Source: Cyanidioschyzon merolae (Eukaryota). From it: 64,000 nt of DNA. A model generated the notes under the pieces. The model was not told the DNA's origin, did not search any database, and saw only the letters and a program-made list of their open reading frames with translations. The stretch lies in assembly GCA_000091205.1 (NCBI GenBank), contig AP006497.2; one strand, written 5' to 3'. Position numbers and translations under genes: made by a program. Positions 1 to 54,340 of the stretch are shown here, in pieces (position 1 is the stretch's first letter; the number at the start of each line of letters is the position of its first letter).

Positions 1-7
1 GGAAAGT

Positions 8-922
8 TTGGGAAATGTTGCTTCGCGTGAGCTGGCGCTCGAGTACCGCCTCGATGCGTTCAAGCGTGCGTGCCTGTCGCTACCGGACTCGGTGCTGGCG
101 CACTGGGCTGCAGCCTCGCTGCCGGATGCGAATTCGCTTTTCATGGTGCGTAAGCGATTTGCGCTGAGTCTGGGAACCTCGTCGTTGCTCCTGTATCTCT
201 TGGGGGTGGGTTCACGGACACCAATGCATATTGGGATTCATGGAAGCACTGGTGATGTGGTGCATCTGGAGACGCACCCCATTGTGGTGAGTCGCGGTCA
301 GCAGGTTTACATTGGATTTGATGAAGCGGTTCCGTTCCGATTGACGAGGAATATTCGGAGTCTCATTCGCCTGACGGGAGTTGAGGGCCCCTTTGCTGGC
401 TCGATTGCGGCGACGTTGAATGTTGTGTATCGTAACTGGGCGCTTCTGCGGGACCTCATGGGCATCGTTTACACAATGGAGCTCTTTGAGAGAACCAGTC
501 GAGAGACGCTCCGTGTTGAGGATCTGGCGCAGGCGGTGGAAGAGAGCCTTGTGCGGAGCTGGGCCCGAGTCGAGCCGCTGCCGTTCTCGGCAGCACCGCT
601 GGTTCAGTCACCAACAGCACCAGCGTACGCTGCGGCAACGGCAACGGCAACGGCAAACGGGAAACGCGTACCACACCCAGAGTCCAGCCACGGTGGTGAT
701 CATGATCATGATCATGATCATGATCACGAGGTGACGCAGACCCTACCACCGCCTGTGAATACAAAAGCGAATGGCCTCGAATTCGCGGAGCGTTGCGGGC
801 CGGCGACCTCGGTTCGCGACGAGCCCGAGGGTGTCGCTCGCCGCGTCGCTGAACTCATTGCGAACGCTGGTGACCCTGCGCACTTGTCGCAGATGGAGCC
901 GCTGTGGTATCCATGGTTCTAA
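8..922 (+). CDS. C-terminal part of a PIKK-family (TRRAP/Tra1-like pseudokinase) protein: degenerate PI3K-like catalytic region plus FATC-like tail; the gene starts upstream of the window
   Basis: ORF is open from the window edge. LLGVGSRTPMHIGIHGSTGDVVHLE resembles the PIKK catalytic-loop region with the catalytic Asp/His replaced. The C-terminus ...MEPLWYPWF matches the aromatic FATC ending. An internal His-Asp repeat is present. Confidence 0.45.
   Translation: MGNVASRELALEYRLDAFKRACLSLPDSVLAHWAAASLPDANSLFMVRKRFALSLGTSSLLLYLLGVGSRTPMHIGIHGSTGDVVHLETHPIVVSRGQQVYIGFDEAVPFRLTRNIRSLIRLTGVEGPFAGSIAATLNVVYRNWALLRDLMGIVYTMELFERTSRETLRVEDLAQAVEESLVRSWARVEPLPFSAAPLVQSPTAPAYAAATATATANGKRVPHPESSHGGDHDHDHDHDHEVTQTLPPPVNTKANGLEFAERCGPATSVRDEPEGVARRVAELIANAGDPAHLSQMEPLWYPWF
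698..727. repeat. (GATCAT)n microsatellite, in frame, encoding an (HD)6 tract
   Basis: gatcat repeated about 5 times, giving HDHDHDHDHDHE in ORF 8..922. Confidence 0.9.
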
Positions 923-1587
923 CGCATCGACAGCTGCAGTGGGGATGCAGGATACGCGCGACGGCGAGCTAGTTCGTTCACGAACGTTTCGTGATCGGAG
1001 CACGAGTAGCGCGCTCGCTGGAAACAAGGTTGAAGAGCGCACGAGTTGTTTCGGGGGATACACGAACAAGCGTTCCCGAGTCGATTCTGGATCGAGGCAC
1101 AGCTGCTTCGGGAAAGCAACGGATCAGTGAGCGCGATGTCAATGTCAATGACGACAACAAGAACAACAACGACGAGGTCCGGGCGTCTTGTTGTTCATAT
1201 GCGGCTGCAGGGTATCTTTAGTCGTATTGAATCATAGAACAGTATGATCGTGTATCCGTGTTCGGGGTAAATCTTACGCTGTGAATATAAACGGCGCGAA
1301 AGTGTTACTGGATCGTTGAACGACACTCTACAGGTGCGTTGCTCTAGGCGAGCCTCCGATGTCCTTTGCTGCTGACCACGAAGTTTTTTCCCATCGCACG
1401 TCATCAGCGTTCCAATACAATACCCACACACACACACAGACAGAGAACTCAATGGAACCTCGAAAGTTCGCTCAGTACAAGGCCGCTAGACGCTGCAGAA
1501 GCACGAGACATCTCCGGATGTTGATCGAGGCGTTCAACTGTGTGTCTACAGAGAAGGAAACGTCAGCGCATGTGGTTGTTCGCGGGA

Positions 1588-1636
1588 ACACACACACACA
1601 CACACACACACAGACAGACACAGACAGACACACACG
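1588..1636. repeat. (CA)n/(GACA)n compound microsatellite; a shorter (CA)n lies at about 1426-1441
   Basis: acacacacacacacacacacagacagacacagacagacacacac seen directly. Confidence 0.9.
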
Positions 1637-4600
1637 CCACTGCAAACCTGTCAGGTTCGATTGCCTCGTCATCTGTGGTCCGGTCTGCCTAAAGTACACC
1701 ATTTCGTGGATCGCTCTCCGTTTTATGCTGTGCTTTTGTACCGGTTTCAGGGTGTAACCGGGCTTTTGATGCGTATCTTTCGTCGTGGACGCCTCCATGG
1801 GAATGGTACAGGGTGCGCTTCCTGCACTCGTTGGATGCTCTCGTCTGCGACACGCGATTACAGCCTTTGAGCGCTGCAGGATGCCCAGTGGTGCAGAATG
1901 GAACAAAACCACGCGACTCGATGGTCATTTGCTTTTCCAATTCATTGAAAAAGTTGGTGCATACATGCTCTCTGCCTCTGTACAACAGAGACCGTTCGCA
2001 ATTCTAGATCGATCCCGTGGAAACCGTCCAAGTATCGCCACATGCCCTTTATGGACGCGCGTATCCTCTCTAAACCGTAAAATTTCCTATACCAGTCAGT
2101 AGGTTTTTTCTGGAAGAGTGAAGTGAACGTACAATGCGAACAGAAGAGGGCGTACATCGTGACGCGCTCGAGAGTGCTCCGCATAGGGTTCGCATTTCAA
2201 GGTTGGTTTTGAGTTTTTTTGGTACCGCAGCTGGCGATATTCCAGGTGTCGACTCGATGCGGCGACCTGTAAAGTTAAGTTGGGAATCAAGTGTTCCATT
2301 CCCTGGACTTTTGCTCAGGTCGCACGGCGCATCCTGCCCCGCGCGCCAGCTGGGTTGTCGTGCGTAGCTTTCATCGACAAGTTCTGGATGAATGTGGATT
2401 GTTGGTTGTCCTGCGTCCGGACTCCTACGTACCGTTGCTTATCGACGTGCATCGAGAGAGTAGAGGCGACCGCTACTCGAATAAGAAGCCATACAATTGC
2501 TAATGGAGTACGGTCTTTCACTTTTCAGAGGAATCTCCCCGGTAATCGGTTATAGGAAGGAGGGGTTTAGAAGGGTTTCCGGCTGATCTTTCCACCCTGG
2601 CACTCTTCTCATTACTGTTCTTGCTTGTACTCTGTTCGGAAGGATGCTTCTCTTCATTGTCGGGCGGTTTGCGCGTTATATCCTTGGCTCGTCGGGGCGT
2701 CATCCATGAGGTCGCTGTACCCTGTATGCATTTTTCCACGCGATTCACATGTGTGGAGTTATCTGTCGGCCAGAGGCTGGTCTCGTCCATCCATGAATCT
2801 ACGAATCCTCGAGTACCTTTTCGTAGTTTTCTCTGTCGAAAGCACGCTCCAGGACCGGAGCGCATATATGCGCTCCGTGCTGCACTCAAACTGAAGAGCG
2901 ATAGTGCAGAACGGGGGCTCGTGAAGGTAGAGACCGACTTGTCGGAGAACAGAGCCACGGATGCGAACGCCGCATCGAGTGATTGAAGGTCGTATAAAAG
3001 GTGTTTGAGAAGAGATAGTTCGCCTTCGACTTAGTGAAACAGGGACAGAAAGCGGGTACGAAGTGCAGCTCAACGCTAGTCGCAGGCGCGTACTCCCTGA
3101 CCGCTGTTGCGTAATGTAAATCGACGTTGTCAAGAATCGTTACGAAAGATTTCCGGAAGCACAAGTCAGAGGGTGTTTCGGCGAAGGATTCGTTACTGAA
3201 CGCTCCTGAAGGTTAGGCGATTTGTAGTGTTCAAAGAACTAGATCGCTGCTGGGGCTCACGTTGTCGTCAAGCCAGGTTGTCTCGTCTTGATGGGCAGCA
3301 GTCCAGCGCTTCTTGAGTGCGCTTACACAAGTCGACTAATACTGCCGAGTAAATTCTGCTCGAATGAGACGGATACTTTTGACCCTTGTACGAAGAGCTC
3401 GAATTTCTCCTTGAAATTGATAGAATCTTGATCAGCGTGCGACGTTGTACCACGGAAACATGCGTGTTTCTTAGTCCTTCCGATTGTCTTCCTTGCGTAT
3501 GGAATCTCAAGTACGGAAACGTCGTATCTCGTGGCAGCTGCGGTAGTATTTTTCCGAACACGTATGGATTGGAACGGGTTCCCCGGGAGATGATTGTATA
3601 GATGAATTCTTGAAAGTTCTGAGTTCGGTGCATGATTCACAGAATCGGGACTGGATCAAGTGTGCTTCACACGCCTGCAGACAGCAGACGCCTGGTTTGC
3701 TCGTATTTTTGCGACCACGCGCTAGTTCACAAGAGTCTCATCTTCGCTTGACTGCGTGTGAGAAAACGGATAAAAACAGAAAACGCGTGCCGATGACCAT
3801 ATTCTAGAATTCAATGCGCTGCGAATGACCTGGGCATGTCGTGTGCAAGTCAGCCGATAGCGTTCTAAGTGCAGCATCGGCTGAGTGGACCGTATCACTT
3901 GGGTCAGCACAGAATGGGACACCGAACTGCTCGCGCTGTGTGTGCCTTGCGATTTTCGTCGCAACTTGGGCTTAGATATCTAGCTTCGACGTTCGGCATT
4001 GTAGCGGTATGAGGTTACGGGTTGATGGGAAGTTTCATCGCGCTCAGCAGTTCTTCAGGGGTGAATTTTCCGACTGTTCGACGCCTCTAGATCTTGTATA
4101 CAAGCCTCGACTCTGCTGTTTTCCTTAAGCGTACCATGTTCAAATCACGCATTCCTCAAGTTTTCGATCGTTCTGTTCCAAGGGAACTCGTGGGTGCAGC
4201 TGCTCGTGCGGCTGGACTCGCGAAGAGAGAAACTCGATGCTGCACCTAGGAAACTCCTTCAGATGTTCATGCCAAACGCCCAGTAATTGCCCTAAAAATG
4301 ATCGGTACCGTTCGAAAGACAAACCCACCACGCTTTACGTTCATCGACGAAAGAGCGTTCCATAGATGCGTGACATATGTAATGGGATATGCCTCCAGAG
4401 ACTCTATTTTCATCTGTTTATATGTCGTATTGTCTTGGACTCGAAGCTCGGTCACCGCGACATCGCGTGCAATGGAGCATCCGTTACCTCTTTGCACCAG
4501 GAGATCGAAGGTTATAGTCGGATGAAAAGTTTTCTCGACATCATCTCCTGCCTGAATGATCTCGTCGATACTTGCTTCATCATGGATCACATCGCATTCC

Positions 4601-26106: not shown

Positions 26107-26504
26107 GAAAACGGCGCGTTACCTGGCGTTCGGGCTAAGAGGTTCACGCGATCTGTCCACGGATGAATCAGGTTCAGAGCCTCAGCTTTGCTACACCGCT
26201 GAGAACCTGCCAATGGATCTCACCCTTTCTGCAAGAAAGCGCCTCGCAGAGCGGCGTCTAACCTCTTCCAAACAACACCCCGGGCTAACTGCGACGCTGC
26301 CCAGAGCACGAGTGCACAGCAGCGCGGCTTCGACGTCTGCGTTGTGCCGCTGCCGCCGAACTGGCAGCCGCGCCGACGTCCATCCACAGGCGCGATCGCG
26401 TAGGCGGACACGAGCGCCGTGCAGCATGCGTCTATCGGCTGTCAACTCAAGTGTGTTTCATCCGCGGGTGCGTTGCAACGAATGCTTTTTCGCAGGGTAT
26501 AACA

Positions 26505-27893
26505 GGGGATGGAATTCACGATACAATGTACCGTATCGATCGTAGATCAGTTGGATGTCGGATATGGATTCTTTACTGAACAGGGCAAAGAGGACTGCAT
26601 TCCGCCTTCGGGTCTCTCATAGGGTCGTACTCAAATGGCTGAGGAATATTGAAAGAAACGTGCAGATGTACTCCGTACCAAAAACTGGTATTCTCTAATA
26701 CTGCTTGCGGTCTATGGTAGAAAACGACCAGTTGATCGCCTTTTGCGGAAGGTAAAAGCGATAATAATAGACACCAGCGGCGTCTCTGTTTCTCAACAGG
26801 TGGTTCATGTGGACGTGAAATCTCTGGGATCCAATCGCAGAAAAAGTACGAGTTCACGCACAGCCATCTTCCACGGAAATCGCAACTACGGAATTCCTGG
26901 AACGTCAAGATCGGTATGAAGTAGACGAACGTCAATTTGTTTCTGCAGAAGATGTGAGTTCCTTCTGAGGAAACGATCGGAACGTCTATCGGTACGCGCG
27001 GAGCAGGGCACCAGTTTTGTGTACGATTGAATTCGAAGAGAACGGCGACATCATCTGCTCTAGGCGCAGTGGATTCATTTGGCAGCCTCAGCGTCGCTCC
27101 TCGAGAAGGCGCTTACCAAAGCACCCACTTGGTTGAACCATTGAAGATCTTCCCGAATGTCTGGCGAAGGCCTTCCATTGGACAACATACCCTTTCACCA
27201 TTCCACATGCGTTCGAGCTTTTCTTCGATTCTATCGGGGCAGAGCTGCTTTTCATTCCTCCATACCCTCAGAGATTCATCCCCATGAAACAAGTGTTTGC
27301 CATCGTGAAGCGTAATGATCCCTCCACTGCACGAATCCATGAATCGTTCTGCTCACGGTGACTCACAGGGACATATTTCGCCGTCCTTCCGCAAATCTAT
27401 CTCGCTCCTGCAAGGTCCTCAGCTAGGGACATAAAGAAGTGCTTTCATTTTGAAGAAAAAATGTTCAAGGCATGAGCTGAGTTGTAACCTTCAGCAGGTC
27501 GAGCTCGAAACAAGGCAGCCGAGCGCTTCTGCGATAGAAAAGTACGGAAAGCTGATAGACCACCAAATGGTAATGAGGGCACGGCCTCGAGGACTCCTTG
27601 CGCTGGTAAGTTCCACTAGCGGTAGAGCATGCAAGGAGGTCGCGAACCGAGACTGCAACGTCGCCACCAAGATCAGATGATATGCGGTGCCAAAGACGAG
27701 ACTCCCGGAGCTGACGCGATCCAACTTTCTGGGGCAGCCTCTCAGGCTCGAAGGGTGTTCGGATAAAAAATGAAACCTTTAGCAGGAAGCCGGTCAAAAA
27801 ATGCTGAAAGGCCTCTGCCGATGGATATCCATTTCCCCTACAGGGCCGTCGGACATTTTGTTTCACTGACGACGTTTGTATACGCGCAGGTTT
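26505..27893 (+). mobile_element. Non-autonomous (internally deleted) derivative of the Fanzor/TnpB-family element: roughly 0.85-kb left-end region joined to a degenerate C-terminal/RE segment; no intact ORF
   Basis: 26505-27390 aligns (same orientation) with 47352-48240 of the full copy. 27450-27680 translates to RARPRGLLALVSSTSGRACKEVANRDCNVATKIR, a decayed version of KVRGLLAFVSTTNDGKKRMEFVNRDFNAAINIRR. The 3' 200 nt align with the right end of copies at 50400-50613, ending ...gtttgtatacgcgcaggtt. Confidence 0.75.
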
Positions 27894-33686: not shown

Positions 33687-34480
33687 TTATTAGAACCCCA
33701 CCAGAAGAAACGCATTTTCCCACGGAAGCGGCAGCGAACGCCGTTCAACAGTCGAAAGTCGCCAGCAGTGTACAGTAGTTGCGAATGACCTGCCCTAGAC
33801 GAGACACGTCCGAATGACGTGCAGACGCCTCCCAGTATTTTTGGACCGGCCACCGACTACTGGTTCCATTTTTTTCTCATATAATCTAACCTTGAGATGT
33901 TGCCCTGCAAAAATTTCTCTTGTCATCTCTGGAGGCCTCTTGTCCATCACCGCACGTCTCCTGATATTGATAGTGGCATTAAAGTCTCGATTCACAAACT
34001 CCATGCGTTTCCTGCCATTGGTAGTTGTATTCATTAGTGCGAGTAGTCCGCGAATTTTCGCCTTAGTTTCCATTTGCACTTCCGCCAGCGCTTTGTACTT
34101 TTTTACACCCTCAAGGCTCGGCTGACACTGCTCCATCTTGACCTTCTGGAGCGTACACCACAGCTCGTGGCGTATGTTGGATGTTCGGAACTCATATATC
34201 GGTATTGTGACGAAACATCGTGCGCATTCCTTGTACGCTCATTGCGAGTTGCTGTAAACCGGAAACGAAATTCTCCTCGACAAGCCATAAAAGTGGTGTT
34301 GTGGCTTTCCGCCAGACACGGTGGCTGTTTTTGCCGTGTCCATGGTCCCGCAGGCGTGTCCCGGAGTGCGCTGACTCCATAAAAGCCGCGAGTTCGCGCT
34401 GCTGCCCTGGCATCGGGGTGCTGGCGGCTCCACAGCACAGATACCTCATGATGTGCGGGCGAAGCATGCTGCTTCAGCAC
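33687..34480 (-). mobile_element. 5'-truncated copy of the Fanzor/TnpB-family element (RuvC-II, Zn-finger region, RuvC-III and right end retained)
   Basis: Minus-strand translation IYEFRTSNIRHELWCTLQKV...KIRGLLALMNTTTNGRKRMEFVNRDFNATINIRRRAVMDKRPPEMTRE...YEKKMEPVVGGRSKNTGRRLHV; right end aligns with other copies and stops at about 33687, 40 nt upstream of the DnaJ ATG (33646). Confidence 0.8.
33795..34480 (-). pseudogene. C-terminal fragment of the TnpB/Fanzor-like nuclease gene (broken frames upstream of RuvC-II)
   Basis: ORFs 33795..34136 and 34192..34467 are in different frames but collinear with the C-terminal third of copies at 40.5-42.9 kb and 48.3-50.5 kb. Confidence 0.75.
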
Positions 34481-34779: not shown

Positions 34780-35672
34780 GCTAGGCGAGAGCGATCCGTT
34801 TGCGAATCATTTCGGAATGCGAATTCGATGTTCATGAGTGTCTTCCCGTAGTAATGCCTCTTTACTTCAGGTTCGAGGCGCGCCTGTTCGAGTTGGTTTA
34901 GCGCTTGCGTTCGAGCTTTTTGTCGATTCCATCGGGAAGCAGACCTGCTTTTTATTCTTCCTTGCACTCCGTGATTCAAGCCCATCACAGACGTGTTTTC
35001 TATCGTGAAACGTAATGATCGCTGCACTGGGCGAATCGCTGAAGCGTTCTGCACAATCACGTCGGAGCATATATCGTCGTTTTTCAGCAAGTCTTTCTCC
35101 CTCCGGGCAGGTCGTCGACTACGGGCATTCAGAAGTACGTGCATTTGTCGAAATAGAAAATCCATGCGAAAAGTATGGACATGAAAGTTAGGGATCCCGG
35201 AGGGTCGTCATTGCCAGGCGCCGGAAAAATGGATATATTGCTCTCCTCGTCGACCAGTGAGCGAAGAAGAGCAAGCGAAGATGATGACGAAGAAGAAGAG
35301 AATAGATAGGCGAGAAAAGATGGATGCCCGACGAGACGCTGGCGATTCTTTATTAGCACTGACGGCGCGAGTTCTAGCAATCCTGGCAATCGTGCGTTCA
35401 ACCGTCGACGATGCTCGCATGTAGCTCGTGAACCGAGACTTCACTGTCACCATCAATATCAGACGATGCGCGGTGCAGGAAACGATACCCGAGGAGCTAT
35501 GACGATCCAACTTCGTAGGGCATGCGCTCAGGCTCGACGCGTGCCTGGATACACTGAAGCTGCCAGCAGGTGGCTGGTCAGAAAAAATGGGAGGCTTCTG
35601 CACGCGGGCACCAGTTTAACCTCCATGGGCGCGAAATGCCTATCGTTTTACTGACTACAGACGTTCATTCTC
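34780..35672 (+). mobile_element. 5'-truncated non-autonomous derivative of the same family (3' part of left-end region + degenerate RuvC-III/RE segment), head-to-head with the fragment at 33687-34480
   Basis: 34860-35400 aligns with 48040-48520 (gcgttcgagctttttgtcgattccatcggg..., gtgttttctatcgtgaaacgtaatgatcgc..., gacgagacgctggcga). 35420-35500 translates to LVNRDFTVTINIRRCAVQETIPEEL; right end aligns with other copies to about 35672. Confidence 0.7.
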
Positions 35673-40546: not shown

Positions 40547-40574
40547 TGCTTCGGGCGCCGTGGCAAAAGTGCAA

Positions 40575-43090
40575 ACCCCTGGAAACAAACGTCTTTCAAA
40601 AGAAAAACGATGCAGCCTGCGGTATACAGAAATGGCGCGCAGCGCGCCCGAGTCAGAACGTCTCCAGCTGACGTGCAGTCGCCTCCCCGTCTTTTTGGAC
40701 CGGCAACCTACTACTGATTCCAACTTTTTTTCATATAATTCCACTTTGGGAGGTTTTCCAACAACGTTCTCTCTTGTCAACTCTGGAGGTCTTTTCTCGA
40801 GCACCGCACATCTCCTTATATTGATGGCGGCGTTAAAGTCTCGGTTCGCAAACTCCATACGTTTCTTGCCATCATTGGTTGTACTTACTGATGCAAGCAA
40901 TCCTCGAACTTTCGCTCTCCTTTCCATTTGCTCTTCCGTCAGCGCTCCGTACTTTTTCGTATCCTCAGGGCTCCGCTAGCACTTTTCCATCTCCACCCTC
41001 TGAAGTGTACACCCCAGTTCATGGTGTGTATACGATGTTCGAAACTCATCCATTGGTATCGTAACGAAACGCCTCGCGCACTCCTTGTACGTTCTTGTCG
41101 TTGGAGCTGGAGTAGTCCCTTTTTGGGTCTTCCAGCGCCCTGCTCCGTACCCTGCTACGAGCCTCTGACTTTTATCCTCCTTCAGGGCACTCAACTGATT
41201 GAAAAAACTCTCGAACGCACGCTGCTTACCACACTATAGATTCATTCGCAAACGAGCCCACCGGGGCTTGGTATACTCCTCCCACAATGCATTCCAATGA
41301 GCAACGCGAACTTCCATGAATTTCCGAAAAGCTTTAAAGTCCGCTCCTCGGCTCGTCACCTCGCTCACAGCTTCCAGGTGCTCGTTCATTCCTGCATTCC
41401 ATTTCTCGATTTTCTTCCTCGTATTCATGATTCCCGATTCTCGATGGTATCTCGCTCTCGAGAACCTCAAAAGACGCATATCTTTCTGATGCAAGGTACC
41501 GTCAGTACCATCTTCCCCACGCTTCGGTGCTGCGATGGTTATGATACTTGTGTTTCCAGCGTCCGCGCCAACGACAAAGTCGTTCTCGTGCATCTTCTGT
41601 GTCGCAGGACCCGCCTTCTTCTCATCTTCATGGTTCTCCGAGGGCGGAACGGGCCGATCCACACTCAACCGCCGATAGTGTATGCACCTGGCTACTCCAT
41701 CGGTTTCGATCATCCCAGTGAATACCTTTTGTCTGCTTACTTTCAGACGTTTGAAATCGAAGATACTCTTCCGGGGCATCTCCCGGTTTTCGTCGGTGAA
41801 CTCCTCCCTGCGAACATCGAACTCCGGACAGATCTCCTTCAAGATGCCATGAAGGATTCTCGAGTCCATAGTCACAAAATGTGACTTGATATTGCAAATT
41901 GGAACCATGTTGAAGCGCTTCCCCATTAGGGCCGACTTCCGCCTCTCCCACTCTTTATTTGTCTCCTCACTCAGCTTCCTCTCTGCCTGGCGTTCGAGTT
42001 CTCGGTCCAGAACCACAGAATAGCGCAGGACGAGGCGATAGTATCTTTCCTTAACTTTTTTTCAACTCTGATATCTTTTCTGTTGGATTCGCCAGCTCCA
42101 AGACTGCACGGTGCTCTTGTATTACGGCACGGATGACGGAGTCCTCATTCATGCTCTGGTTTGACGCCTTCTTGTCGACGAATTCGATCTCATCTTCATG
42201 CTTACGATCGTTCGTGGTGCCATTGAGGTCCGCCTATACTCCATTGCGAGAGATGCGCGGGTAGCGTGCAAACACGGCACGTATCATGAAACGTTCGAGG
42301 TTCATTGTCAAATGGTTCTTCAGATTCGTGAGGTATTTCATGGCCCCATAGTCCTAAATATCCCGGTCACCCCTATACCGAGTACCCTCGAAGCGGAATT
42401 CCGGGAAGGTTTCGTGGAGGACATGCACTGCTCATTTTCCCTCCGCGCTTTCGCTGTACCAAGCATCAGGTGACGAATAAACGTCGTGTCGAAGAATTCT
42501 TCCGGAATCTCGACTGTTTCCATGTGCGTCACGTCGCGATACATCTCCTTCACCAAATGCATCAGTCCTATAGAGTCCATACGAACCCTCGTGAAGTACG
42601 AATCAACATAATTTCTGATGGCCTCTCGCAGATTTTGCTTGTGCGGATCCTGAATATGGCCTAGATGGCATGATTTCTTTACAATCTTGAAGTAGGGTCG
42701 TCTTTCGAGTTGCATTTGGCGCCGGGCCCCCCCTTGTTTTGCGTCATCGTCGTGTCTTGTTTCTCTTCGGTCGGTATTCTTTTTCGCTTTTTCCGCTAGC
42801 CGGCGACGCTGCCCCTCCAGGATCCTCCACTTCCTTTTCCATAACTTTCCTCTTTTATTTTTTTGTAACGCACTTTGAACGCTTCTGCTATAAACCGCGA
42901 AAAAAACACGAGAATACACTTGTTTGAGGTTTGAGACACAAATGAACGGAAAAACTGTACTTTGCTACAACTTTAACGCAAGTACAACTTTTATATTAGA
43001 GCAGCACGCTATTGATCAGGATCGCGTTTCCCTTCAGCTGCGGGATGCGCGTCGTGACTCGAAAACTAACAGATCTCCCTGGTGCGCAAA
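40575..43090 (-). mobile_element. Near full-length copy of the Fanzor/TnpB-family element (copy D), with a truncated left end
   Basis: Collinear on the minus strand with copy 47352-50613 from the N-terminal basic region (42919) to the right end (acccctggaaac at 40575-40586); about 75-80% nucleotide identity. Confidence 0.85.
40660..42919 (-). pseudogene. TnpB/Fanzor-like RuvC nuclease gene, inactivated (at least 3 frameshifts, 2 in-frame TAG stops)
   Basis: ORFs 42338..42919, 41234..42016, 40976..41194 and 40493..40927 form one collinear protein: N-terminal KRKWRILEGQRRRLAEKAKKN (basic), [17 protein letters not shown] (RuvC-I), IPMDEFRTSYTHHELGC (RuvC-II), NRDFNAAINIRRC (RuvC-III). TAG replaces Tyr at 41234-36 and Gln at 40976-78 relative to the other copy. 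Confidence 0.85.
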
Positions 43091-43574
43091 TCGATAGCGC
43101 TATGTAGAACAAAGAACAGAGACTCACGACTAGCGAGCAACGATACAGCAATTTCTCTCCCGTTCTACGATAAACGTTGAAAACGGGGAAAAGGTTCCCA
43201 TATTCTGAAGAGTCCTCCCTCTAGGCGAAAAGTCCCGCGAGCCGGACGAGTCTCCCGGACTCGTGCTTCGTGCTCCACCCAGTAGCGGGCGCTGTGGCGA
43301 GACCTGAGCAGTTCGTCCGCAACGCGGTTCATTCTGGGACTAGATGCGGGATGCTGTGTTTGGTCGTCGCCCTGATCGCAGTAGACTCCTAATATATCGG
43401 TTCGCGCTTTCGCAGGCAGTAGTTCTGTCTGTTTAGCCTACAGGCTCCCAGAATTATTCTGGACTCCAACGCTGTATCAGGTAAAGCGTTCCTCAATCCG
43501 TCGCCCTCAGTGGTATGGCAACGCTGTTCTATCTCCATGATGCATCCGTCCCAGTGGTATAGGCGCTAAGGCGG

Positions 43575-44200
43575 GTGCCCAAAGCAGGCACTCGGTCGCA
43601 CTACAGAACGCACAAAACGATCTGTACATCCGAAAGGAAGTATAAGGAACGGAGCATGGAGGTAGAGTGCATCATGATGGACACTTTTTCGATCAGCTAT
43701 ACCCATCCATCTCGCTATCTGGAATCCAAGTACAATGTAAACGTTTTGTCATTGGAGAGAAATCAGCGGCAACAGCAAATGCAGCGGATTTTGTTCCATG
43801 TGAAAACTTCTCACACAGGCGAGCGTGCCGCGACTCTGTGTGCTTGCTACCTGCGCGCGGTGAAACTTTCGTCGTTCCACGCTTTACGTCCGAGTTTCAT
43901 AACCCATACTTCTTCTCGGATGTACTGGCGTTTCAGACGTACTATCGGGCGCCGAGTGCCTGCCCGTGAACATCCGCCTCAATAGCGCTTGTAGCGCCGG
44001 TGCTGTCGTAGCACAGAAACAGAACGGCGTTGCCGTACCGCAGACGGCGTCTGCTCGAGGCATGCTTCACCTGACGTAGAACTGGGTCTCGTTGTCAGGT
44101 TGTGCTCGGACAGCCTGCGGATGCAAAACTTGCTTTCGCTGCACAACACATTGGAGAAACTTGGCTGTTACGATGAATCCTGGGAGCCGCCTCTCTCCTG
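43575..44200 (+). repeat. Dispersed repeat D (about 0.6 kb) lying 0.5 kb upstream of petC
   Basis: 43860-44200 aligns at roughly 80% with 54000-54340 (for example aatagcgcttgtagcgccggtgctgtcgtagcacag...gagaaacttggctgttacgatgaatcctggga); weaker similarity extends to 43660 / 53690. Confidence 0.75.
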
Positions 44201-46668: not shown

Positions 46669-47351
46669 GGCAAAAACGCAACTCGTGAACGTCCCCCGGC
46701 TGCTGGGTTTTCCTCTCGCAACAAGCTCGACTCGAAAGGCAGCGAGATGTCTACCGAAACATTCCAAGCGTTTTACGGATCAGTGCGCCCTCAGCAGCGC
46801 CGTGCGGAAAAGCGCTCTGAACGATTGGATGGGATCCAGATGCCTATGCTGCAGGGTATTTCCTGTGAATGCAGAGCACTCGTTTCCGGTTTCTATGTTG
46901 CCGTCGCATGCACAGGTGTAAGCGGACAGTGAATTGACCTCTTGCGCTGCACTCGTGAAATGTCGAGCACGAATTCATCCATGTCAAACTGAAATGGTAT
47001 TTGCCGCAAGCTTCCCATGAAGAGGCATTTGCTGGTCGCATTTGGACTTTGGAAGCGATGCTGAAGACAAGTTCATCGCCGCGAACTCGCGTTGGAGCGG
47101 GATGCTTTGGCATTTCGCGACTGCAAAGCAACGTTCAGTGAGTGCTGGTGAGTGCCAGCACGCACATGCCAGCACCATGCCCTGAACAGACCCAGAAAAC
47201 GAATCGACGCGAATGTTTAGCTGCTTTTTCACCAGATGTGTCATATTGGCATCTATCGGATGCGTGAACGCTACCATCAAAGAGGCCCGAGGTTTCCGTT
47301 CTTGTAGTCTTTGTACTAAATTCTGTTTCACTTCCGCTGCGATGTCTAGAA

Positions 47352-50300
47352 GGAGATCGAAATCACAATGCAATGCATAGTGTAGATCGTAGATGATTTG
47401 CATGTAGCATATACATTCATTTCTGAACAGTGCAAGGAAGACTGTATTCCTCGTTTAGGACAGTCATACCACCGTACTCAGATGGTTGGCAAACACTGTA
47501 AGAAAAATGTAGATGCACTCCGTGCCAGAGATCGATATTCATTGAGGTCGCTTGCAGTCGATCTTAGAAAACGATCCGTTGATCACCATTTTCGGAAAGC
47601 AACAGCGACGATAATAGCCGCCACAGGCGTCACCGTTTCTCAACAGCTTATTCTTATGATCCCGAAAACATTGGGATACAATCTCAAAAAAAGTCATCGT
47701 TCAAGCAAAGGCATCTTCCATCCAAATCGCAACGACAGAGTCCCTGGAACGTCACGATCGATAGGAACCACTGGATCGTCAGTTTGTTTGTTCAGTTGAT
47801 GAAAATTGCTTCAGAAGGCACGCTCGGAGCGTCAATGGGTATTCGAGGTGAAGGGCGCCCGTTGTACGTTCGATCGAGCTCGAAGAGAACGACGAAATCA
47901 TCATCTATTATAGCTTTAGAAGATTTATTTGGCGGCCTCAGTTTCACTTGTAGAAAAGACACATGCAACAGCACCAACCAATTTGTCCAAGCATTGAAGA
48001 CTTTTACCCGACGTCTGGCGACGTCCTTCTATTGGGCAACGTGGCATATCACCATATCGCTTGCGTTCGAGCTTTTTGCCGATTCTATCGGGGTAGGGGT
48101 GATTTTTGTTCGTCTGTGCGCTCCGTGGTTCAAGCGCATTGTAGGAGTGTTTTCTATCGTGAAACGTGATGATCGCTCCCCCGGGCGAAACGCTGAGCGT
48201 TCATCACTCGGTAACACATCGGGGTACATGCCATTTATCTTGCGAAAGCCACGCTCCCTCCGAGAAAGCCCTCATCTAAGGGCAAAAAACGTGCGGTCGT
48301 TTTGACGAAATAAAACTCCAAAACAAAGCTATGCACGTGCAAGTCGGGGATCCTGAAGGGCCCTTGCCGCCGGCTGGCAGAAAAAAACGAAAAATTCTGC
48401 CAATGGAATAGGAACAAAACAGAACGAAGAAGCAAAAGGGCGAGGCCCGACGTCAAAAGCTGCGCGAAAGACGACTATGCGACGAGACGCTGGCGAAAGC
48501 CTGTCTTGGTAACCATATCAAGGATTCGGACAAGCAAACATGCAACAAGTCATCCGAGACCGTGTCGAGTCGCACTCCATGAGTATTGTAAAGGATTCTT
48601 CAGGACTAATGCCTTTGACGAAGGAGATGAATCGCGGCGTGACGGGCATCAAAACAGTCGAGGTTCCGGGAGAATTTTTCAACACCATCGTTATGCATCA
48701 CCTGATGCTTGGCACAGGGGAAACGTCGAGGAGAAAGGAGCGAATGCATGCCCTCCACAAAATTACCCCGAATACCCTTTTCATCGGTAATCGATACCGG
48801 CGTGACTCGGATATTTACACGTACGGGGCGAAAAAGTACCTCACGAACCTAAAGAACCATATGAACATGAACCTCACACGTTTCATGATACGTTCCGTCT
48901 TCGCGCTGGACCCGTGCCTCTTTCGCAAAGCGATAGACGGGTTACCATCAATGGCATCTCGAACGATAGTAAGAACGAACAGGAGATCGAACTCGTCGAC
49001 AAGAAGACCTCGCACAGGAGCATGAATGAGGCTTCTGTCATCCGCGCGGCTATTCAAGAGCACCGTGCACTCTTGGGGCTCGTTGACCCAGCAGAACAGG
49101 TATCAGAGATGAAAAAGATGGAAAAAGAAAGATGTTACCCACACTTCCTGCGCTATTTCGTGTATTTGGACCAAGAACTCGAACGCAAGGCTGGGATGGA
49201 GCAGGGTGTGCGGAAAAATGCAGAGTCGGTAGAACGGAAGGCTGCGCTTGCGGGTACGCGCTTCGAAGTCGTTCGGTTATGCGAGATCAAGTCGCACTTT
49301 GTGACAATCGACTCCAGAGTCCTTTACGGAATACTGAAGGAGATAAGTTCGGGGCTCGATGTACGCAACAAGGAGTTCACCGGTGAAAATCGGGACACGT
49401 ACTGGACGCATGTCTTCGACGTCAAGCGTCTCAATACGAGCCAGAAAAGGTATTCAGAGGTGTCATCGAAACTAAATGAGTAGCCATGTGTGCACACGAT
49501 CGGCGCTTGAAGGCAGATCGTCATATCGTGCCTTCGGCTTCGCCCGTGACGAAGCATGAAGATGTGAAGCAGGCGGATCCCGCGACGCAGGAGGTTCAGG
49601 ATACTGGCTTTGGCGGCGGCGCGGACCCTGGGATGACGAATATCATAACGATCGCAGCACCGAAGCGTGCGGGAGATGGTGCTGATGGTAACCTGCGTCA
49701 GATAGAAATGCGTCTCTTGAGGTTCTCGAGACCGAGATACTACCGAGAATCCGGTTCAATGAATGCGAGGAAGAAAATCGAGACATGGAATGCAGGAGTC
49801 AAGGATCAGCTGGAAGCTATGAGCGAGGTGACGATCCGACATGCGGACTTTCAAGATCTGCCAGAGTTCATGGACACTCAAGCTGCTCATGTCGAGGAGC
49901 TGCGGAAAGAGTATCGAAAACAAAGGTGCGCTCGTCAGCGTTTGAATCTGTACAGAGAGAACCAGCGTGCATACGCCAACGATTTCAATCCGTTGAGCGC
50001 CTTGAAGGAGGACGAGAGTCAGAGGCTGGTAGAAGCGTATGGGGCAGCGCGCTAGCTGGCCCGAAAAGGGACTACGCCAGCTCCAACGACAAGAACACTC
50101 AAAGAGCGTACACGGCGTTTTGTTACGATACCAATAGGTGAGTTCCGAACATCGTATACACACCATGAAGTGAGGTGCGTACTTCAGAGGGTCGAGATGG
50201 AAACGTGCCAGCGGAGCCAAGAGGATATAAAAAAGTACAGACCGCTGACGGAGGAGCAAATGGGAAGGAGGGCAAAAGTTCGCGGACTCCTTGCATTCGT

Positions 50301-50613
50301 GAGTACAACCAATGATGGCAAGAAACGCATGGAGTTTGTGAACCGAGACTTTAACGCCGCAATCAACATCAGAAGATGTGCGCAGCTGGAGAAAAGACCT
50401 CCAGAGTTGACACGAGAGAGAATTTTGTCAGACGACCTCTCAAGGTCGAAGTATACGAGAAAAAGTTGAAACCAGTAGCAGGTGGCCGGTCGAGAAAGTC
50501 GGGAAGGCGTCTGTACGTCGGCGTATAGGCATCCGATCTGCGGCGCGCCGCTCGCCACTCCTGTACCCCTAGCGACAGCGTTTTTCTTGTGAAAGGCGTT
50601 TGTTTCCAGGGGT
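47352..50613 (+). mobile_element. Full-length copy of the Fanzor/TnpB-family element (copy E): roughly 1-kb non-coding left-end region, nuclease gene, roughly 90-nt right end
   Basis: Left-end region shared with 26505-27390 and 34860-35400; ORF segments 48331-50525; right end gtttttcttgtgaaaggcgtttgtttccaggggt conserved in all five copies, ending at about 50613. Confidence 0.85.
48331..50525 (+). pseudogene. TnpB/Fanzor-like RuvC nuclease gene, inactivated (at least 3 frameshifts, 1 in-frame TAG)
   Basis: ORFs 48540..49025, 48914..49483, 49486..50055 and 50170..50469 lie in frames 0/2/1/1. Motifs: PAGRKKRKI (NLS-like), GGGADPGMTNIITIAAP (RuvC-I), IPIGEFRTSYTHHEVRC (RuvC-II), NRDFNAAINIRRC (RuvC-III). 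TAG at 50053-55 where copy D has Trp. Confidence 0.85.
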
Positions 50614-50652
50614 GCCCAGGGGGTCGCTTTAGCCTAGCTTTTGGTCTCGAAA

Positions 50653-52743
50653 ATGCCTCAATGGGACAAGCGCGCCAGACAGCGAAGAAGCAACCAGTCT
50701 CGTTGGCGTCGGGAACCATGGGAGACGCAGGAAGTCGCTTCACCGTTAAGTTGGCTCTGCTTGCCTGCGCGTGTGCTAGCGTGCTTTGGCTCACCTCCGA
50801 GCGAAGAGCTCGCTGAGTCGGCGCAGCCGCCCGACGACATTGTGCCTTGGGAGGACTCCGAAACCGCCGACTCGTCTTCTCAAAGCAGTTTTGGTGGCTC
50901 TGATGAAGGTGCGCGCCAAGAGCTTGCGTGCCGTACGCGAGCGGAGAAAGTGGACGGCAACGGCGCTGGCACCGAGAACGACCAGGATGAGCAACTATCC
51001 GTCGAGCTGGACGCGCTTCGTCGACGTCGCTCCTTCTCGGCCACGAGCTTCCACTTGCCAGCTGTATCCCGTCCAACAGCGGCAGGTAGCATTGTCGACA
51101 TACCGTCAGAGCGTCCACAGACCGCGCAACGCAGAGAACGTCAACGTATCGTGGGCAAGTTGGCGCTCGTTGGGCTCGGTACTCAGCTTCTGCTGCTCAG
51201 CTTGAAGTTGTACAGATTTGAATCGCTCTCACCAGCGTATCTCGTTTTTTCCGTCGCGTTTTTCGTGTTCAGCGGAGGACTTGCTTTCCTGAGTCTCCAC
51301 TACTTTAAAATGGGGCGCCTGCCACCTTTTCTGGATGTGGCTGCAAAACGGCGAGAAGCGTCGCACAACCGTTCGTGTGGGACAAGCCCGGCCCGCTCCA
51401 ACACCGACTCGACGATGCGTACGCTGAGCGGAGCGGGTTCGGCGTTCAGTACTCCAACGGCGGACAGATCGCCATGCACGCCCAAGTCTCGAATTGCCTC
51501 GCGCTCTCGAGAGTACGCTCAAAGCTTCCAAGAAAAAGGCGATGCGCAGGTCGTCAGAACGTCATTTGACTCGCGATCAAACCGACGAATCTTCTCAGTG
51601 CTGGGTGTCGAGAGCTCGCAGTCATTTTGCGAGCAACAGGGGTGCAGTACAAGAATGCCGAGCAAGAGTCGACCGGCAGCGATACGAATCGACGTTACCA
51701 GCGAGCGTACCGCGGCAACATCAGCGAGCGATGACGCAGTTAGTGCGGACAACATCGCCGTGTCCGTCAGAGAGCCGTCCACGCTCTCTGATGCCGATGC
51801 TGATCATACAGAGCATGGTATCGAGAAGCGTCGCGGCACCTTCCGCGAAAAGCCCGGCCAGCGAGGCACGCCCGGTGTTCGCGCTGCTGTTGCCGAAACC
51901 CAGCGACGACATGTGCAGCGGGCGACAGAAACTCGTAGCGCCGGCGCACCGGCCTTGCCGGTACCAGACGCTTCGGACCAGATGAGAGCTGGCGCATCCT
52001 TAGAGCAACGGCGTCGATCCCGCGAGGCATCCTCTCTGTCAGACGACGGAACGCCTCCCGAAGTGCAAATTGAGTCACTGCGTATTGTAGAGAGTTGGGA
52101 GAAGATGCGTATAACAGCAAAGAAGGAAATCTTAGCGGAAGATTTTTGCGAGGGAATGCTCAGTCTATTGAGCGTCATCGATGCATTGGGTCCCGCTTTT
52201 CGAATCATCAAAATCGACATTCGAAATCATGTGAATGGGATCCACCGCAGCTGCACGAAACACAACTGCCGCACCCTGCAGCGCCTCATTGATGCAGAGT
52301 CGAATCGGGTATCACGCTGGTTGAATCCATCGGGCATTGGCGATGGTACGGAACATGTGCTCTGGATGAAACGGGCCATGCAGTTTGTGTACATGCTGTT
52401 GTACATGTTTTTGGATGGCATCGATTTAGACCGGTGTGTATACCATGCATATCGCATGACGCTGCGAGCCTGTCACCCGTACATTGTCCGGAAAGTAGCG
52501 GAGAACCTGCACCGCTTCGTCCCTACCAGAGCTGGCTTTTTGCGCAGAATCCACGCAGATGAGGACTTTGTTTTAACGCAAATGCGGCGATTCTTGAAGG
52601 CAATCGAACCGCGTCTTGATATTATCGTTGAGGTATTCAACGCAAACCAGCTGGAACCGCACTGTCGATTCTCATGCGCAGAATTGCGCCGGCTGGCACA
52701 GCACTGTGCAAAATATGATATCGACGAGGATATGACGCAGTGA
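50653..52743 (+). CDS. Membrane-anchored protein with a C-terminal glycolipid-transfer-protein (GLTP) domain
   Basis: C-terminal 200 aa: LSVIDALGPAFRIIKIDIRNHV...HVLWMKRAMQFVYMLL...AYRMTLRACHPYIVRKV parallels the GLTP fold (LWLKRGLKF...AYxxTLxxxHxWxVR). A transmembrane stretch LALVGLGTQLLLLSL...FFVFSGGLAFLSLHYF precedes it. The ORF-track start 50641 is TTG; first ATG is at about 50653. Confidence 0.55.
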   Translation: MPQWDKRARQRRSNQSRWRREPWETQEVASPLSWLCLPARVLACFGSPPSEELAESAQPPDDIVPWEDSETADSSSQSSFGGSDEGARQELACRTRAEKVDGNGAGTENDQDEQLSVELDALRRRRSFSATSFHLPAVSRPTAAGSIVDIPSERPQTAQRRERQRIVGKLALVGLGTQLLLLSLKLYRFESLSPAYLVFSVAFFVFSGGLAFLSLHYFKMGRLPPFLDVAAKRREASHNRSCGTSPARSNTDSTMRTLSGAGSAFSTPTADRSPCTPKSRIASRSREYAQSFQEKGDAQVVRTSFDSRSNRRIFSVLGVESSQSFCEQQGCSTRMPSKSRPAAIRIDVTSERTAATSASDDAVSADNIAVSVREPSTLSDADADHTEHGIEKRRGTFREKPGQRGTPGVRAAVAETQRRHVQRATETRSAGAPALPVPDASDQMRAGASLEQRRRSREASSLSDDGTPPEVQIESLRIVESWEKMRITAKKEILAEDFCEGMLSLLSVIDALGPAFRIIKIDIRNHVNGIHRSCTKHNCRTLQRLIDAESNRVSRWLNPSGIGDGTEHVLWMKRAMQFVYMLLYMFLDGIDLDRCVYHAYRMTLRACHPYIVRKVAENLHRFVPTRAGFLRRIHADEDFVLTQMRRFLKAIEPRLDIIVEVFNANQLEPHCRFSCAELRRLAQHCAKYDIDEDMTQ

Positions 52744-53589: not shown

Positions 53590-54340
53590 CTAAACTGTGA
53601 AAGCGACAGCAAATGCGCCCACGCAGAGCCAGGTGTCGATCATCGGAGAATGTCCGAGCGACTGCGAGCGTGCCTGTTTGCATCGCTGCGCGCCTCCGCG
53701 CGTAACCGCTATGTTTTTCGTGGAATACGACGTCTGCGATGAACCTGAATATCTCGAGTACGTGATTGTTGTCGGCAACGAGAAAACAGGCGACAATTCC
53801 TTTTCAGATGGTTTGATGCTTCACGCCTGCCAGCACAGTCTCTCGATTCGAACATAGGATTCGACTCAACGACTTTTGGGCTACAGTGCTCACTCGACGG
53901 TAAGCTCGCCACGACATCCGATTCTTTTCATGGACAAAACGTTTCCATCGGCCAGCGTTCTCCGATTACGCGCATTTTTCTTTTCTTACTTTTTTTGTGT
54001 TTTTTTTTCAGTGCGCGGTGAGGTATCCACCAAATCCCCTACTTCCATGTTACATTACCTGCACTTCGTCTCGGATATTCTGGTCGTTTCATACGTCCTA
54101 TCGTGTGTGCCTAGTACCTGCCGAAAGCGACAGCAATAGCGCCTACAGCGCCAGTGCGGTCGCTGCACGGAGACAGAGCGGCGTTGCCGTAACACAAAGG
54201 GCGGCGGCTCGAGGCGTGGCTCACCCGACGTAGAATCGGGTCTCGTCGTCAGTTTGTGCTCGGAGAGTCTGCGGATGCAGGCTTGTCTTCGCAGCACGAC
54301 ACGCTGGAGAAACTTGGCTGTTAGGATATATCCTGGGAAC
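53590..54340 (+). repeat. Dispersed repeat D, second copy, about 0.4 kb upstream of the kinesin gene
   Basis: Aligns with 43575-44200 and (T-rich core) with 10990-11160. Confidence 0.75.

Follow-up and report, generated by a model that had tools for sequence, protein, structure and literature searches.

[quoted passage not shown]

A novel interspersed repetitive element of 3.2 kb, present in 253 copies, was described in the genome of C. merolae by Nozaki et al. (2007; PMC1955436), who found that its ORF had BLASTX similarity only to the wsv486 gene of WSSV and who reported that the repeats are transcribed and that their placement is random. Six years later, the Fanzor1 family CMe-1A was defined from the same species, with a consensus of 3,169 bp, a 734-aa protein (CMe-1) and about 150 copies of ~3 kb that lack terminal inverted repeats (TIRs) and are each ~80% identical to the consensus (Bao and Jurka, 2013, Mob DNA 4:12; PMC3627910). 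CMe-1A and the 253-copy repeat are one and the same element. Among Fanzor1 proteins of solved structure, SpuFz1 (PDB 8GKH, 9CEU-9CEZ; Saito et al., 2023; PMC10432273) has the catalytic residues D383/E541/D606 and, like CMe-1, is encoded by a multi-copy single-ORF element; however, that element is bounded by 30-nt TIRs and has a demonstrated 75-nt ωRNA scaffold, whereas CMe-1 elements have no TIRs and their RNA is predicted only. Fanzors share a “rearranged” RuvC-II, in which the canonical Glu is replaced by Gly or Pro and an alternative Glu lies in the motif DE[FY]xT[ST], and N-terminal nuclear localization signals (NLSs) have been reported for about 60% of them (PMC10530073).

The window analysed here is a stretch of 64,000 nucleotides from C. 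merolae contig AP006497.2 (assembly GCA_000091205.1). A first-pass annotation, made from the letters alone, had recognized in it a Fanzor-type element in a eukaryotic host and had left open whether the lineage was already catalogued; it is, as family CMe-1A with protein CMe-1 (Bao and Jurka, 2013). The best explanation of positions 47352-50614, to which we give a probability of roughly 0.93, is a dead copy of this known repeat, with a single Fanzor1 gene. The element is not new, since the same genome yielded both the repeat report of 2007 and the Fanzor1 classification of 2013. It serves mainly as a calibration point, in that a Fanzor1 was recognized from RuvC motifs in raw sequence and the call holds. 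What is added to the published description is a zinc-finger-less clade, consensus ends that appear ~15 nt short on both sides, a conserved RNA-like hairpin at the 3′ end, and insertions that cluster just upstream of genes and share their orientation, which may be of use in Fanzor biology and in the search for heat-tolerant editors.

The eukaryotic nature of the host is confirmed by a protein look-up, in which nine ORFs of the window were identical to annotated proteins of C. merolae 10D within BAM81439-BAM81452, including importin beta, Rub1/NEDD8 E1, an Omp85/Sam50-like protein and kinesin. These exact host genes, together with the Fanzor1-specific structural matches presented below, rule out both a chance resemblance of motifs and a bacterial origin of the sequence.

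The sequences of the CMe-1A consensus and of CMe-1 used here are those of PMC3627910 (Additional files 2 and 3). The window contains five related copies or fragments, spread over 26.5-50.6 kb, as the first-pass annotation had stated (“inside 24 kb”):

26504-27818, plus strand: copy A, an internally deleted derivative in which an E-type 5′ module is joined to consensus 2736-3084
about 33722-34240, minus strand: copy B, a fragment of the 3′ end that starts at consensus about 2665 and is 81% identical over 481 bp
34899-35489, plus strand: copy C, a short deletion derivative with a partial E-type 5′ module and consensus about 2840-2971
40574-43752, minus strand: copy D, a full-length CMe-1A pseudogene
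47352-50614, plus strand: copy E, the element under study
47352-48325, plus strand: alternative non-coding 5′ module of copy E, in place of CMe-1A consensus 1-867

The published consensus aligns to the region of copy E; by blastn against the window, it is covered from 868 to 3169 at 82.3% identity in copy E and from 3 to 3169 at 84.9% identity in copy D. Alignment to the consensus CDS reveals nine frameshifting indels and three in-frame stops in E, and four frameshifts and four in-frame stops in D; both copies are pseudogenes, and the ORF of E is broken as had been noted. With CMe-1A the locus shares the genome, the single ORF (no second ORF occurs in the 3.2-kb element), the lack of TIRs and the level of decay seen in both D and E. 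The element is thus present where it had been placed, but its first ~960 bp do not correspond to the 5′ region of CMe-1A as published: positions 47352-48325 gave no blastn match to consensus 1-867. E therefore falls into a subfamily distinguished by its 5′ module. Copies A and C carry it as well, the module of E being ~70% identical to 26504-27461 of copy A and matching part of copy C. It also occurs in three metagenome loci (L064, L065 and L050), and in L064 and L065 it lies directly upstream of a Fanzor ORF.

The motifs quoted in the first-pass annotation (GADPGMTNIIT, IPIGEFRTSY, NRDFNAAINIRR and PAGRKKRKI) were each located on the plus strand of copy E, where the coding region is 83.2% identical to the consensus CDS:

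48331-50540, plus strand: degenerate coding region for Fanzor1 (CMe-1), which opens with the start codon (MHVQVGDPEG) and reaches roughly to where the consensus has its stop
48370-48396, plus strand: Lys/Arg-rich, NLS-like N-terminal patch PAGRKKRKI (consensus AAGKKRKTV...KKQKREARRQRLQERR)
49453-49476, plus strand: FRGVIETK(*) segment just upstream of RuvC-I, with an in-frame stop in E (family motif FTG.IETDGV)
49618-49650, plus strand: RuvC-I motif GADPGMTNIIT with the catalytic Asp, aligned to SpuFz1 D383
50026-50052, plus strand: LVEAYGAAR, in which Gly holds the canonical RuvC-II position, aligned to VVMGD of SpuFz1 (“rearranged” active site)
50128-50157, plus strand: IPIGEFRTSY (consensus IPVDEFRTSY) with the alternative RuvC-II Glu, aligned to SpuFz1 E541
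50341-50376, plus strand: RuvC-III motif NRDFNAAINIRR, its Asp aligned to SpuFz1 D606

The family motif FTG.IETDGV aligns to F.G..ETDGV of PpFz1 and SpuFz1. The N-terminal patch PAGRKKRKI makes a putative NLS in copy E; the string offered as its counterpart in copy D (KRKWRILEGQ...) is partly out-of-frame and overlaps the true start MEKEVEDPGG, whose frame is a different one.

Assignment of the protein to Fanzor1 depends on a deep profile, since direct searches with individual sequences were negative: Pfam scans of the conceptual proteins of D and E and of close relatives gave no match at E < 0.2, and neither phmmer nor a shallow profile matched any PDB sequence for E, D or close relatives. 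A search for relatives gave 1,531 sequences at E ≤ 1e-3, and a profile built from 86 diverse ones matched PpFz1 (9cf0, E = 5e-21), SpuFz1 (8gkh, 1.7e-13) and GtFz1 (9cer, 6e-9). In the profile alignment, the D/E/D columns of the family fall on chain residues D777/E935/D1000, which correspond to D383/E541/D606 of SpuFz1, so that the residues picked out by eye do align to the RuvC motifs; in CMe-1 these are DPG, DEFRT and NRD, and in both proteins the canonical RuvC-II position is Gly. Among the 86 relatives, the RuvC-I Asp in G.DPG (GADPG in E, GADAG in D), the Gly at the canonical RuvC-II position (VVAYG, 86/86) and the alternative RuvC-II Glu (VDEFRT) are invariant, and the RuvC-III Asp is at least 90% conserved, with NRDFNAAINI present in E, D and the consensus.

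Structure prediction points in the same direction. From a shallow alignment of 25 sequences, AlphaFold gave an unusable model (pLDDT 31.7), and from the alignment of 86 distant relatives a model with pLDDT 82.4 and pTM 0.81. In a Foldseek search of the PDB, its seven top matches were all Fanzor1 chains (SpuFz, PpFz and GtFz; E 3e-16 to 2e-13), the best TM-score being 0.72, normalized to the target, and Cas12 chains followed only at E ≥ 0.04. SpuFz1 itself has the same predicted fold (E = 3e-16, TM 0.72, target-normalized), although its sequence identity to CMe-1 is ~14-15%. The model thus indicates that the CMe-1 family protein has the Fanzor1 fold, with WED, REC and RuvC domains; the profile and structure comparisons proposed at the outset both favor the original reading of a Fanzor1-type RuvC protein of the TnpB lineage in a multi-copy eukaryotic element.

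One part of that reading failed. A segment containing His and Cys had been taken to stand where TnpB has its zinc ribbon, but conservation is lacking at all four Cys positions of the Fanzor1 finger: the C4 zinc finger (OrfB_Zn_ribbon) between RuvC-II and RuvC-III is missing in CMe-1 and in the whole clade. The CxxC...CxxxxC cysteines of SpuFz1 (CPRC...CTNPNC) align to THHEL...LVSTTS in CMe-1, which has none of the four, and the segment has a median of one Cys across the 86 relatives. The C4 zinc finger formed part of the Fanzor/TnpB motif definition of 2013, and CMe-1 was nevertheless listed as Fanzor1 (PMC3627910). On the profile and predicted-fold evidence, CMe-1 may be filed as a zinc-finger-less Fanzor1 clade. 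The lack of the zinc finger makes the nuclease competence of intact members less certain, and cleavage by a native Chlamydomonas Fanzor1 was not detected by Jiang et al. (PMC10530073).

With bacterial TnpB (IS200/IS605, IS607), CMe-1 shares the split RuvC, the D...E...D order and the RD.NAA.NI signature, and its gene lies beside a transposon 3′ end that is predicted to form a structured RNA, as it does there. In addition, the Pfam family PF07282 (Cas12f1-like TNB) is matched by 6 of 36 distant clade relatives, with a best E of 2e-8. By contrast, the CMe-1 copies themselves have no significant direct match to OrfB_IS605 or PF07282, there is neither a TnpA partner nor a zinc ribbon, the N-terminal half of the protein is large and helical and its RuvC-II Glu is rearranged, and the element resides in a eukaryotic nuclear genome. 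Membership in bacterial TnpB/IS200-IS605 was rejected on the lack of any Pfam match at E < 0.2 and of a second ORF.

The 3′ end of the element yielded a further feature:

50564-50614, plus strand: 3′-terminal 23-bp hairpin of copy E, extending ~16 nt beyond the published consensus end (50598)

The copies share about 16-17 nt past the published 3′ end, which complete this hairpin, and probably about 15 nt more beyond the published 5′ end, so that the consensus appears to end about 15 nt short on both sides; they end in ...GGTG, and their 5′ side reads ...GATTTYTTTTC-CGATGAC. A model of the hairpin (R1) scored 65 bits on the sense strand of E (50559-50618) against 17.7 bits on the antisense strand, and 68.5 bits on the terminal hairpin of copy D (40570-40629). 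With a structure derived from one of the sequences compared, 86% of cells are paired across copies, as opposed to 38-63% in slid controls. Six pairs show compensatory changes and many are G.U, giving modest covariation support. RNAalifold predicted zero pairs on a plain MAFFT alignment of 36 3′ ends, which is likely due to subfamily indels of 3-6 nt that shift the register of the hairpin; the named structure was therefore tested on the long-type subset and on a model-based alignment. Exchange of the 3′ tails between copies changed the folding energy little (own, -20.9 kcal/mol; swapped, -19.4 kcal/mol), and this control is uninformative because the tails are homologous across copies. No Rfam family matches the region. 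A conserved sense-strand hairpin is thus present at the extreme 3′ end of the family, and it is a candidate stem of an ωRNA scaffold. By homology to SpuFz1, GtFz1 and PpFz1, intact members would bind an ωRNA encoded at the element's 3′ end, with the terminal hairpin in its scaffold and a guide read from flanking DNA, and would cut matching DNA beside a short adjacent motif, which may aid the persistence or spread of the element. The label “OMEGA system” given to the family is to be read as an inference from this analogy. The copies in the window are dead; copy E itself is incapable of any of this in cis, and at most its 3′ end may be transcribed.

The same 3′ end can be read in another way, in which the repeat is a non-autonomous Helitron-like (rolling-circle) or otherwise trans-mobilized transposon that carries Fanzor1 as a passenger, its hairpin serving the transposase as a signal in the DNA. 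The absence of TIRs and of a transposase gene within the element, the position of the hairpin at the 3′ terminus and the occurrence of Chlamydomonas Fanzor1 genes inside Helitrons (PMC3627910) would all suit such a transposon. However, the many G.U (G.T) pairs and the bias of the score toward the sense strand fit RNA better than DNA; the copies end in ...GGTG and not in CTRR, so that the 5′-TC and 3′-CTRR termini of Helitrons were not found; and on incidental inspection no RepHel gene was noticed in the window or at the examined loci. We consider this origin improbable, and it would in any case be compatible with the identification of copy E as a dead CMe-1A element. Far less probable still is that the repeat is no cellular transposon but was endogenized as a piece of a large DNA virus. 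The sole BLASTX similarity to WSSV wsv486 (Nozaki et al., 2007; PMC1955436) and the presence of Fanzor1 genes in large dsDNA viruses (PMC3627910, PMC10530073) point that way, but the copies are dispersed in their hundreds, have common ends and include deletion derivatives, no viral genes neighbor them, and the WSSV gene itself appears among the listed Fanzor1 elements (PMC3627910).

Apart from its identity as a CMe-1A copy, the position of E relative to a host gene deserves comment:

50653-52743, plus strand: BAM81448.1, a glycolipid-transfer-protein-like host gene (exact protein look-up) with its ATG 38 nt past the end of copy E

The ends of copies B, D and E are followed on the same strand, after ~6-23, 27 and 38 nt, by the annotated ATGs of BAM81443.1, BAM81446.1 and BAM81448.1, respectively. 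Of 27 independent insertion sites, for which the genes in metagenome flanks were called crudely from ORFs, 20 have their nearest downstream ORF on the strand of the element, three have it on the opposite strand and four have none; the first ATG is within 100 nt of the element in 12 of the 27. It is tempting to speculate, although we regard it as doubtful, that CMe-1 elements are placed non-randomly, being inserted or retained in the orientation of a host gene whose start codon follows the 3′ hairpin after a few to ~100 nt. If so, either the predicted guide would consist of host 5′-UTR sequence, or the gene would use the end of the element as its promoter or leader; taken with the missing zinc finger, this would suggest a Fanzor1 lineage of a thermoacidophilic alga with a distinct target logic or in part domesticated. 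A somewhat less likely proposal goes further and holds that the gene immediately downstream has taken over the 3′ end of the element as its promoter or 5′-UTR region, old, dead copies such as B, D and E being kept for regulation and not as junk. It draws on the same-strand ATGs a short distance beyond B, D and E, on the counts of 20/27 and 12/27, on the reported transcription of the repeats (Nozaki et al., 2007) and on related strains in metagenomes. Nevertheless, a preference for insertion into open promoter DNA, or selection against insertions elsewhere in a compact genome, could give the same pattern, and the gene calls in the metagenome flanks are crude. In these strains no empty site was readable from which the exact ends and any target-site duplication could be defined. 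All contigs with the gene that follows E break off 190-370 bp before it, which would be expected at a repeat; at the D locus, the metagenome contigs already carry the element, and the insertion is common to several strains.

Comparison of positions 47001-51000 with the whole window identified four stretches related to copy E besides copy E itself, in agreement with the multi-copy family proposed in the first-pass annotation:

Copy A: 26504-27817
Copy B: 33816-34222, minus strand
Copy C: 34899-35480
Copy D: 40575-42848, minus strand

The element is already known and has been named from the same genome. C. merolae contains one Fanzor1 family, CMe-1A, with a 3,169-bp consensus and approximately 150 copies that are each ~80% identical to it; CMe-1A has no TIRs and no assigned TSD, it encodes a 734-aa protein (CMe-1), and its 5′ 635 bp constitute a separate repeat, TE-N2_CMe (Bao and Jurka, 2013; PMC3627910). 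A 3.2-kb “novel interspersed repetitive element” of C. merolae with 253 copies, amounting to ~5% of the genome, was described as transcribed and as carrying a truncated ORF weakly similar to wsv486 of WSSV (Nozaki et al., 2007; PMC1955436), a virus that harbors one Fanzor1 element (Bao and Jurka, 2013; PMC3627910), and rhodophyta are among the taxa named in a census of 3,655 Fanzors (Jiang et al., 2023). The additions made here to this known element are minor, namely the zinc-finger loss, corrected termini with a hairpin, an alternative 5′ module, and gene-proximal placement. The published consensus (Additional file 2 of PMC3627910) was aligned to the window, in which copies A and C contain short 3′ pieces of it and the other matches are as follows:

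Copy D: 43752-40590, minus strand, consensus 3-3169, 84.9% identity
Copy E: 48288-50598, plus strand, consensus 868-3169, 82.3% identity
Copy B: consensus 2665-3145, 81% identity
TE-N2-like fragments: 43885-44075 and 54038-54240, plus strand, resembling consensus 84-282 (within the TE-N2_CMe part)

One TE-N2-like fragment is inverted relative to D and lies 130 bp from the D 5′ end; four loci (L040, L043, L044, and L047) show a comparable head-to-head layout. The host was correctly called eukaryotic: nine ORFs of the window, translated from the first ATG, exactly match annotated proteins of C. merolae strain 10D (BAM81439.1 to BAM81452.1, on a single 902,900-bp record), including importin beta, the Rub1/NEDD8 E1, an Omp85/Sam50-like protein, kinesin, trehalose-phosphate synthase, and DnaJ, MLO2-like, and GLTP-like proteins.

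All of the copy E peptides quoted in the first-pass annotation were found on the plus strand within the flagged interval:

PAGRKKRKI: 48370-48396, plus strand
GADPGMTNIIT: 49618-49650, plus strand
IPIGEFRTSY: 50128-50157, plus strand
NRDFNAAINIRR: 50341-50376, plus strand

The reading frame of copy E is interrupted, as had been claimed, and its translation must be pieced together across three frames; relative to the consensus CDS (83.2% identity) it contains nine frameshifting indels and three in-frame stops, and copy D (86.8% identity) contains four frameshifts and four stops. Both copies are pseudogenes, and E is dead, with no functional product; the residues of all three catalytic motifs are still present in both. 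The Lys/Arg-rich N-terminus, which had been likened to an NLS, stands in part: PAGRKKRKI is present in E, but the string cited for copy D, KRKWRILEGQRRR, is partly an out-of-frame reading, because the true start of D, MEKEVEDPGG, overlaps it in a different frame. The true basic patch is AAGKKRKTV...KKQKREARRQRLQERR of the consensus.

The observation is confirmed, and its interpretation as Fanzor1 is supported by deep-profile matches, catalytic columns, and predicted fold, all of which agree with the solved Fanzor1 structures. A Pfam scan of D, E, and close relatives matched nothing, nor did a PDB sequence search with a single sequence or shallow profile. The close relatives retrieved by a word-indexed protein search number only 41; all come from JGI hot-spring metagenomes and were previously annotated as Pfam DUF8286. 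Scanning 1.84 billion representatives in full with HMMER yielded 1,531 relatives, one of them from the green alga Tetrabaena socialis. When 86 full-length relatives (27-40% identity to the query) are aligned, the Asp of RuvC-I (G.DPG) and the Glu of RuvC-II (VDEFRT) are invariant and the Asp of RuvC-III (NRD.NAA.NI) is at least 90% conserved. The profile of these 86 relatives matches the solved Fanzor1 proteins of Parasitella (PpFz1, 9cf0; E = 5.2e-21), Spizellomyces (SpuFz1, 8gkh; E = 1.7e-13), and Guillardia (GtFz1, 9cer; E = 6e-9). Of 36 relatives, six match Pfam PF07282 (Cas12f1-like TNB; best E = 2e-8). The three catalytic residues (D/E/D) align with SpuFz1 chain positions D777, E935, and D1000, which, after subtraction of the MBP-tag offset of 394, are the D383, E541, and D606 that coordinate two Mg ions (Saito et al.; PMC10432273). 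The canonical RuvC-II position is occupied by an invariant Gly (VVAYG) across the family, in agreement with the “rearranged” Fanzor active site (Jiang et al.; PMC10530073). AlphaFold modeling with a shallow alignment was unusable (pLDDT 31.7); the 86-sequence alignment gave a pLDDT of 82.4 and a pTM of 0.81, with disorder confined to residues 389-469. The first seven PDB matches of this model in Foldseek are Fanzor1 chains (E 2.9e-16 to 2.3e-13, TM up to 0.72), followed by Cas12 chains with E values of at least 0.04.

Just ahead of RuvC-I lies a unit of 78 bp (26 aa, consensus 2117-2195, ...KHEEKKEADPATQEVQDNDLVV), which occurs as two to four tandem repeats in some metagenome copies (L001 11221-11374, L002 10540-10618, and the proteins P0001 and P0014); the repeat stretch, residues ~389-469 of P0001, is the sole low-confidence part of the model.

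The Fanzor/TnpB motif is described as D-x-[TS][TS]-xx-[C4 zinc finger]-x-RD (Bao and Jurka; PMC3627910), and the His/Cys-containing segment of copy E had been read as the counterpart of the Zn ribbon. This reading fails, since the four zinc-finger Cys of SpuFz1 are not matched in CMe-1: CPRC...CTNPNC of SpuFz1 aligns with THHEL...LVSTTS. The CxxC...CxxC finger is present in SpuFz1, PpFz1, and GtFz1 but absent from the CMe-1 clade of ~600-700-aa relatives, the T. socialis protein included. Because the Cys positions are not kept, and the RuvC-II to RuvC-III segment of the 86 relatives has a median of one Cys (that of GLLWC), the clade is judged to have lost the zinc finger.

An alignment of 54 3′ ends extends the similarity ~16-17 nt beyond the published end (...GAAAGGCG|TTTGTTGTTGGCGGTG or ...|TTTGTTTCCAGGGGTG); the extension is located at 50599-50614 in E and 40574-40589 in D, and is common to ~36 metagenome copies. 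It pairs with sequence ~40 nt upstream, as the 3′ arm of a terminal hairpin that is 23 bp long and contains many G·U pairs. Among 14 long-type copies, 86.5% of helix cells are paired vs. 40-58% with a slid partner, and compensatory changes occur in six helix pairs vs. one to three in slid controls, figures that are biased toward the hairpin because a single member supplied the structure; the observed values were reached by 4-13 of 500 shuffles, and 21 distinct matches drawn from all loci gave similar ones. A covariance model of the helix detected the ends of D and E, and scored only 17.7 bits on the antisense strand:

D terminal hairpin: 40570-40629, minus strand, 68.5 bits
E terminal hairpin (model match): 50559-50618, plus strand, 65 bits

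The abundance of G·U pairs and the difference in score between the strands suggest an RNA read from the sense strand. No Rfam family matches the region; the hairpin has the appearance expected of an omega-RNA scaffold at a Fanzor 3′ end and is a candidate for one.

The fold, catalytic residues, and conserved terminal hairpin were found in this analysis. By homology, an intact CMe-1 protein would bind omega RNA from the element 3′ end and then cut DNA complementary to a flank-derived guide via the D/E/D site; any role in element maintenance would likewise follow from homology. This predicted mechanism is made less certain by the missing zinc finger and also by the native Chlamydomonas Fanzor1, for which no in vitro activity was reported (Jiang et al., 2023; PMC10530073).

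No match to consensus 1-867 is seen in the first ~960 bp of E (47352-48325), which instead resemble copy A (26504-27461) and part of copy C (34899-35204); this non-coding module, which substitutes for consensus 1-867 in E, A, and C, recurs in three metagenome loci (L064 1417-2428, L065 27-435, and L050 2-808), immediately preceding a Fanzor ORF in L064 and L065. Many other copies retain only consensus ~660-905, just 5′ of the ATG; therefore, the 5′ region is modular, and E falls outside subfamily “A.” The 5′ flanks of different copies are alike (...GCYG.TGATTTYTTTTC, the last part being a T-rich run; D flank 43753-43770 and 12 metagenome copies), and either the consensus is ~15 nt short at its 5′ end or the run is a T-rich target motif.

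Three copies in the window end just upstream of host genes:

B 3′ end and flank: 33715-33740, minus strand, ~6-23 nt 5′ of the annotated ATG of BAM81443.1, same strand
D 3′ end and flank: 40547-40574, minus strand, ~27 nt 5′ of the annotated ATG of BAM81446.1, same strand
E 3′ end and flank: 50614-50653, plus strand, ~38 nt 5′ of the annotated ATG of BAM81448.1, same strand

The distribution of the element was termed random previously (Nozaki et al., 2007; PMC1955436). At 27 independent insertion sites in the window and metagenome loci (L003-L069), the closest ORF of 150 aa or more on the downstream side shares the strand of the element at 20 sites and lies on the other strand at three, with no such ORF at four; its first ATG is no more than 100 nt away at 12 sites, and the nearest gene on the 5′ side is mostly a divergent gene start. 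Possible causes of this pattern are insertion into open promoter DNA, preferential survival of such copies in a compact genome, and co-option. No empty site at the D or E locus was found among the metagenome contigs, of which those with the GLTP-like gene downstream of E (L070-L073) all start 190-370 bp upstream of the gene, as would be expected for a break at a repeat. At least the D insertion is old and shared; it is common to several hot-spring metagenome strains (L074-L077, upstream of the MLO2-like gene).
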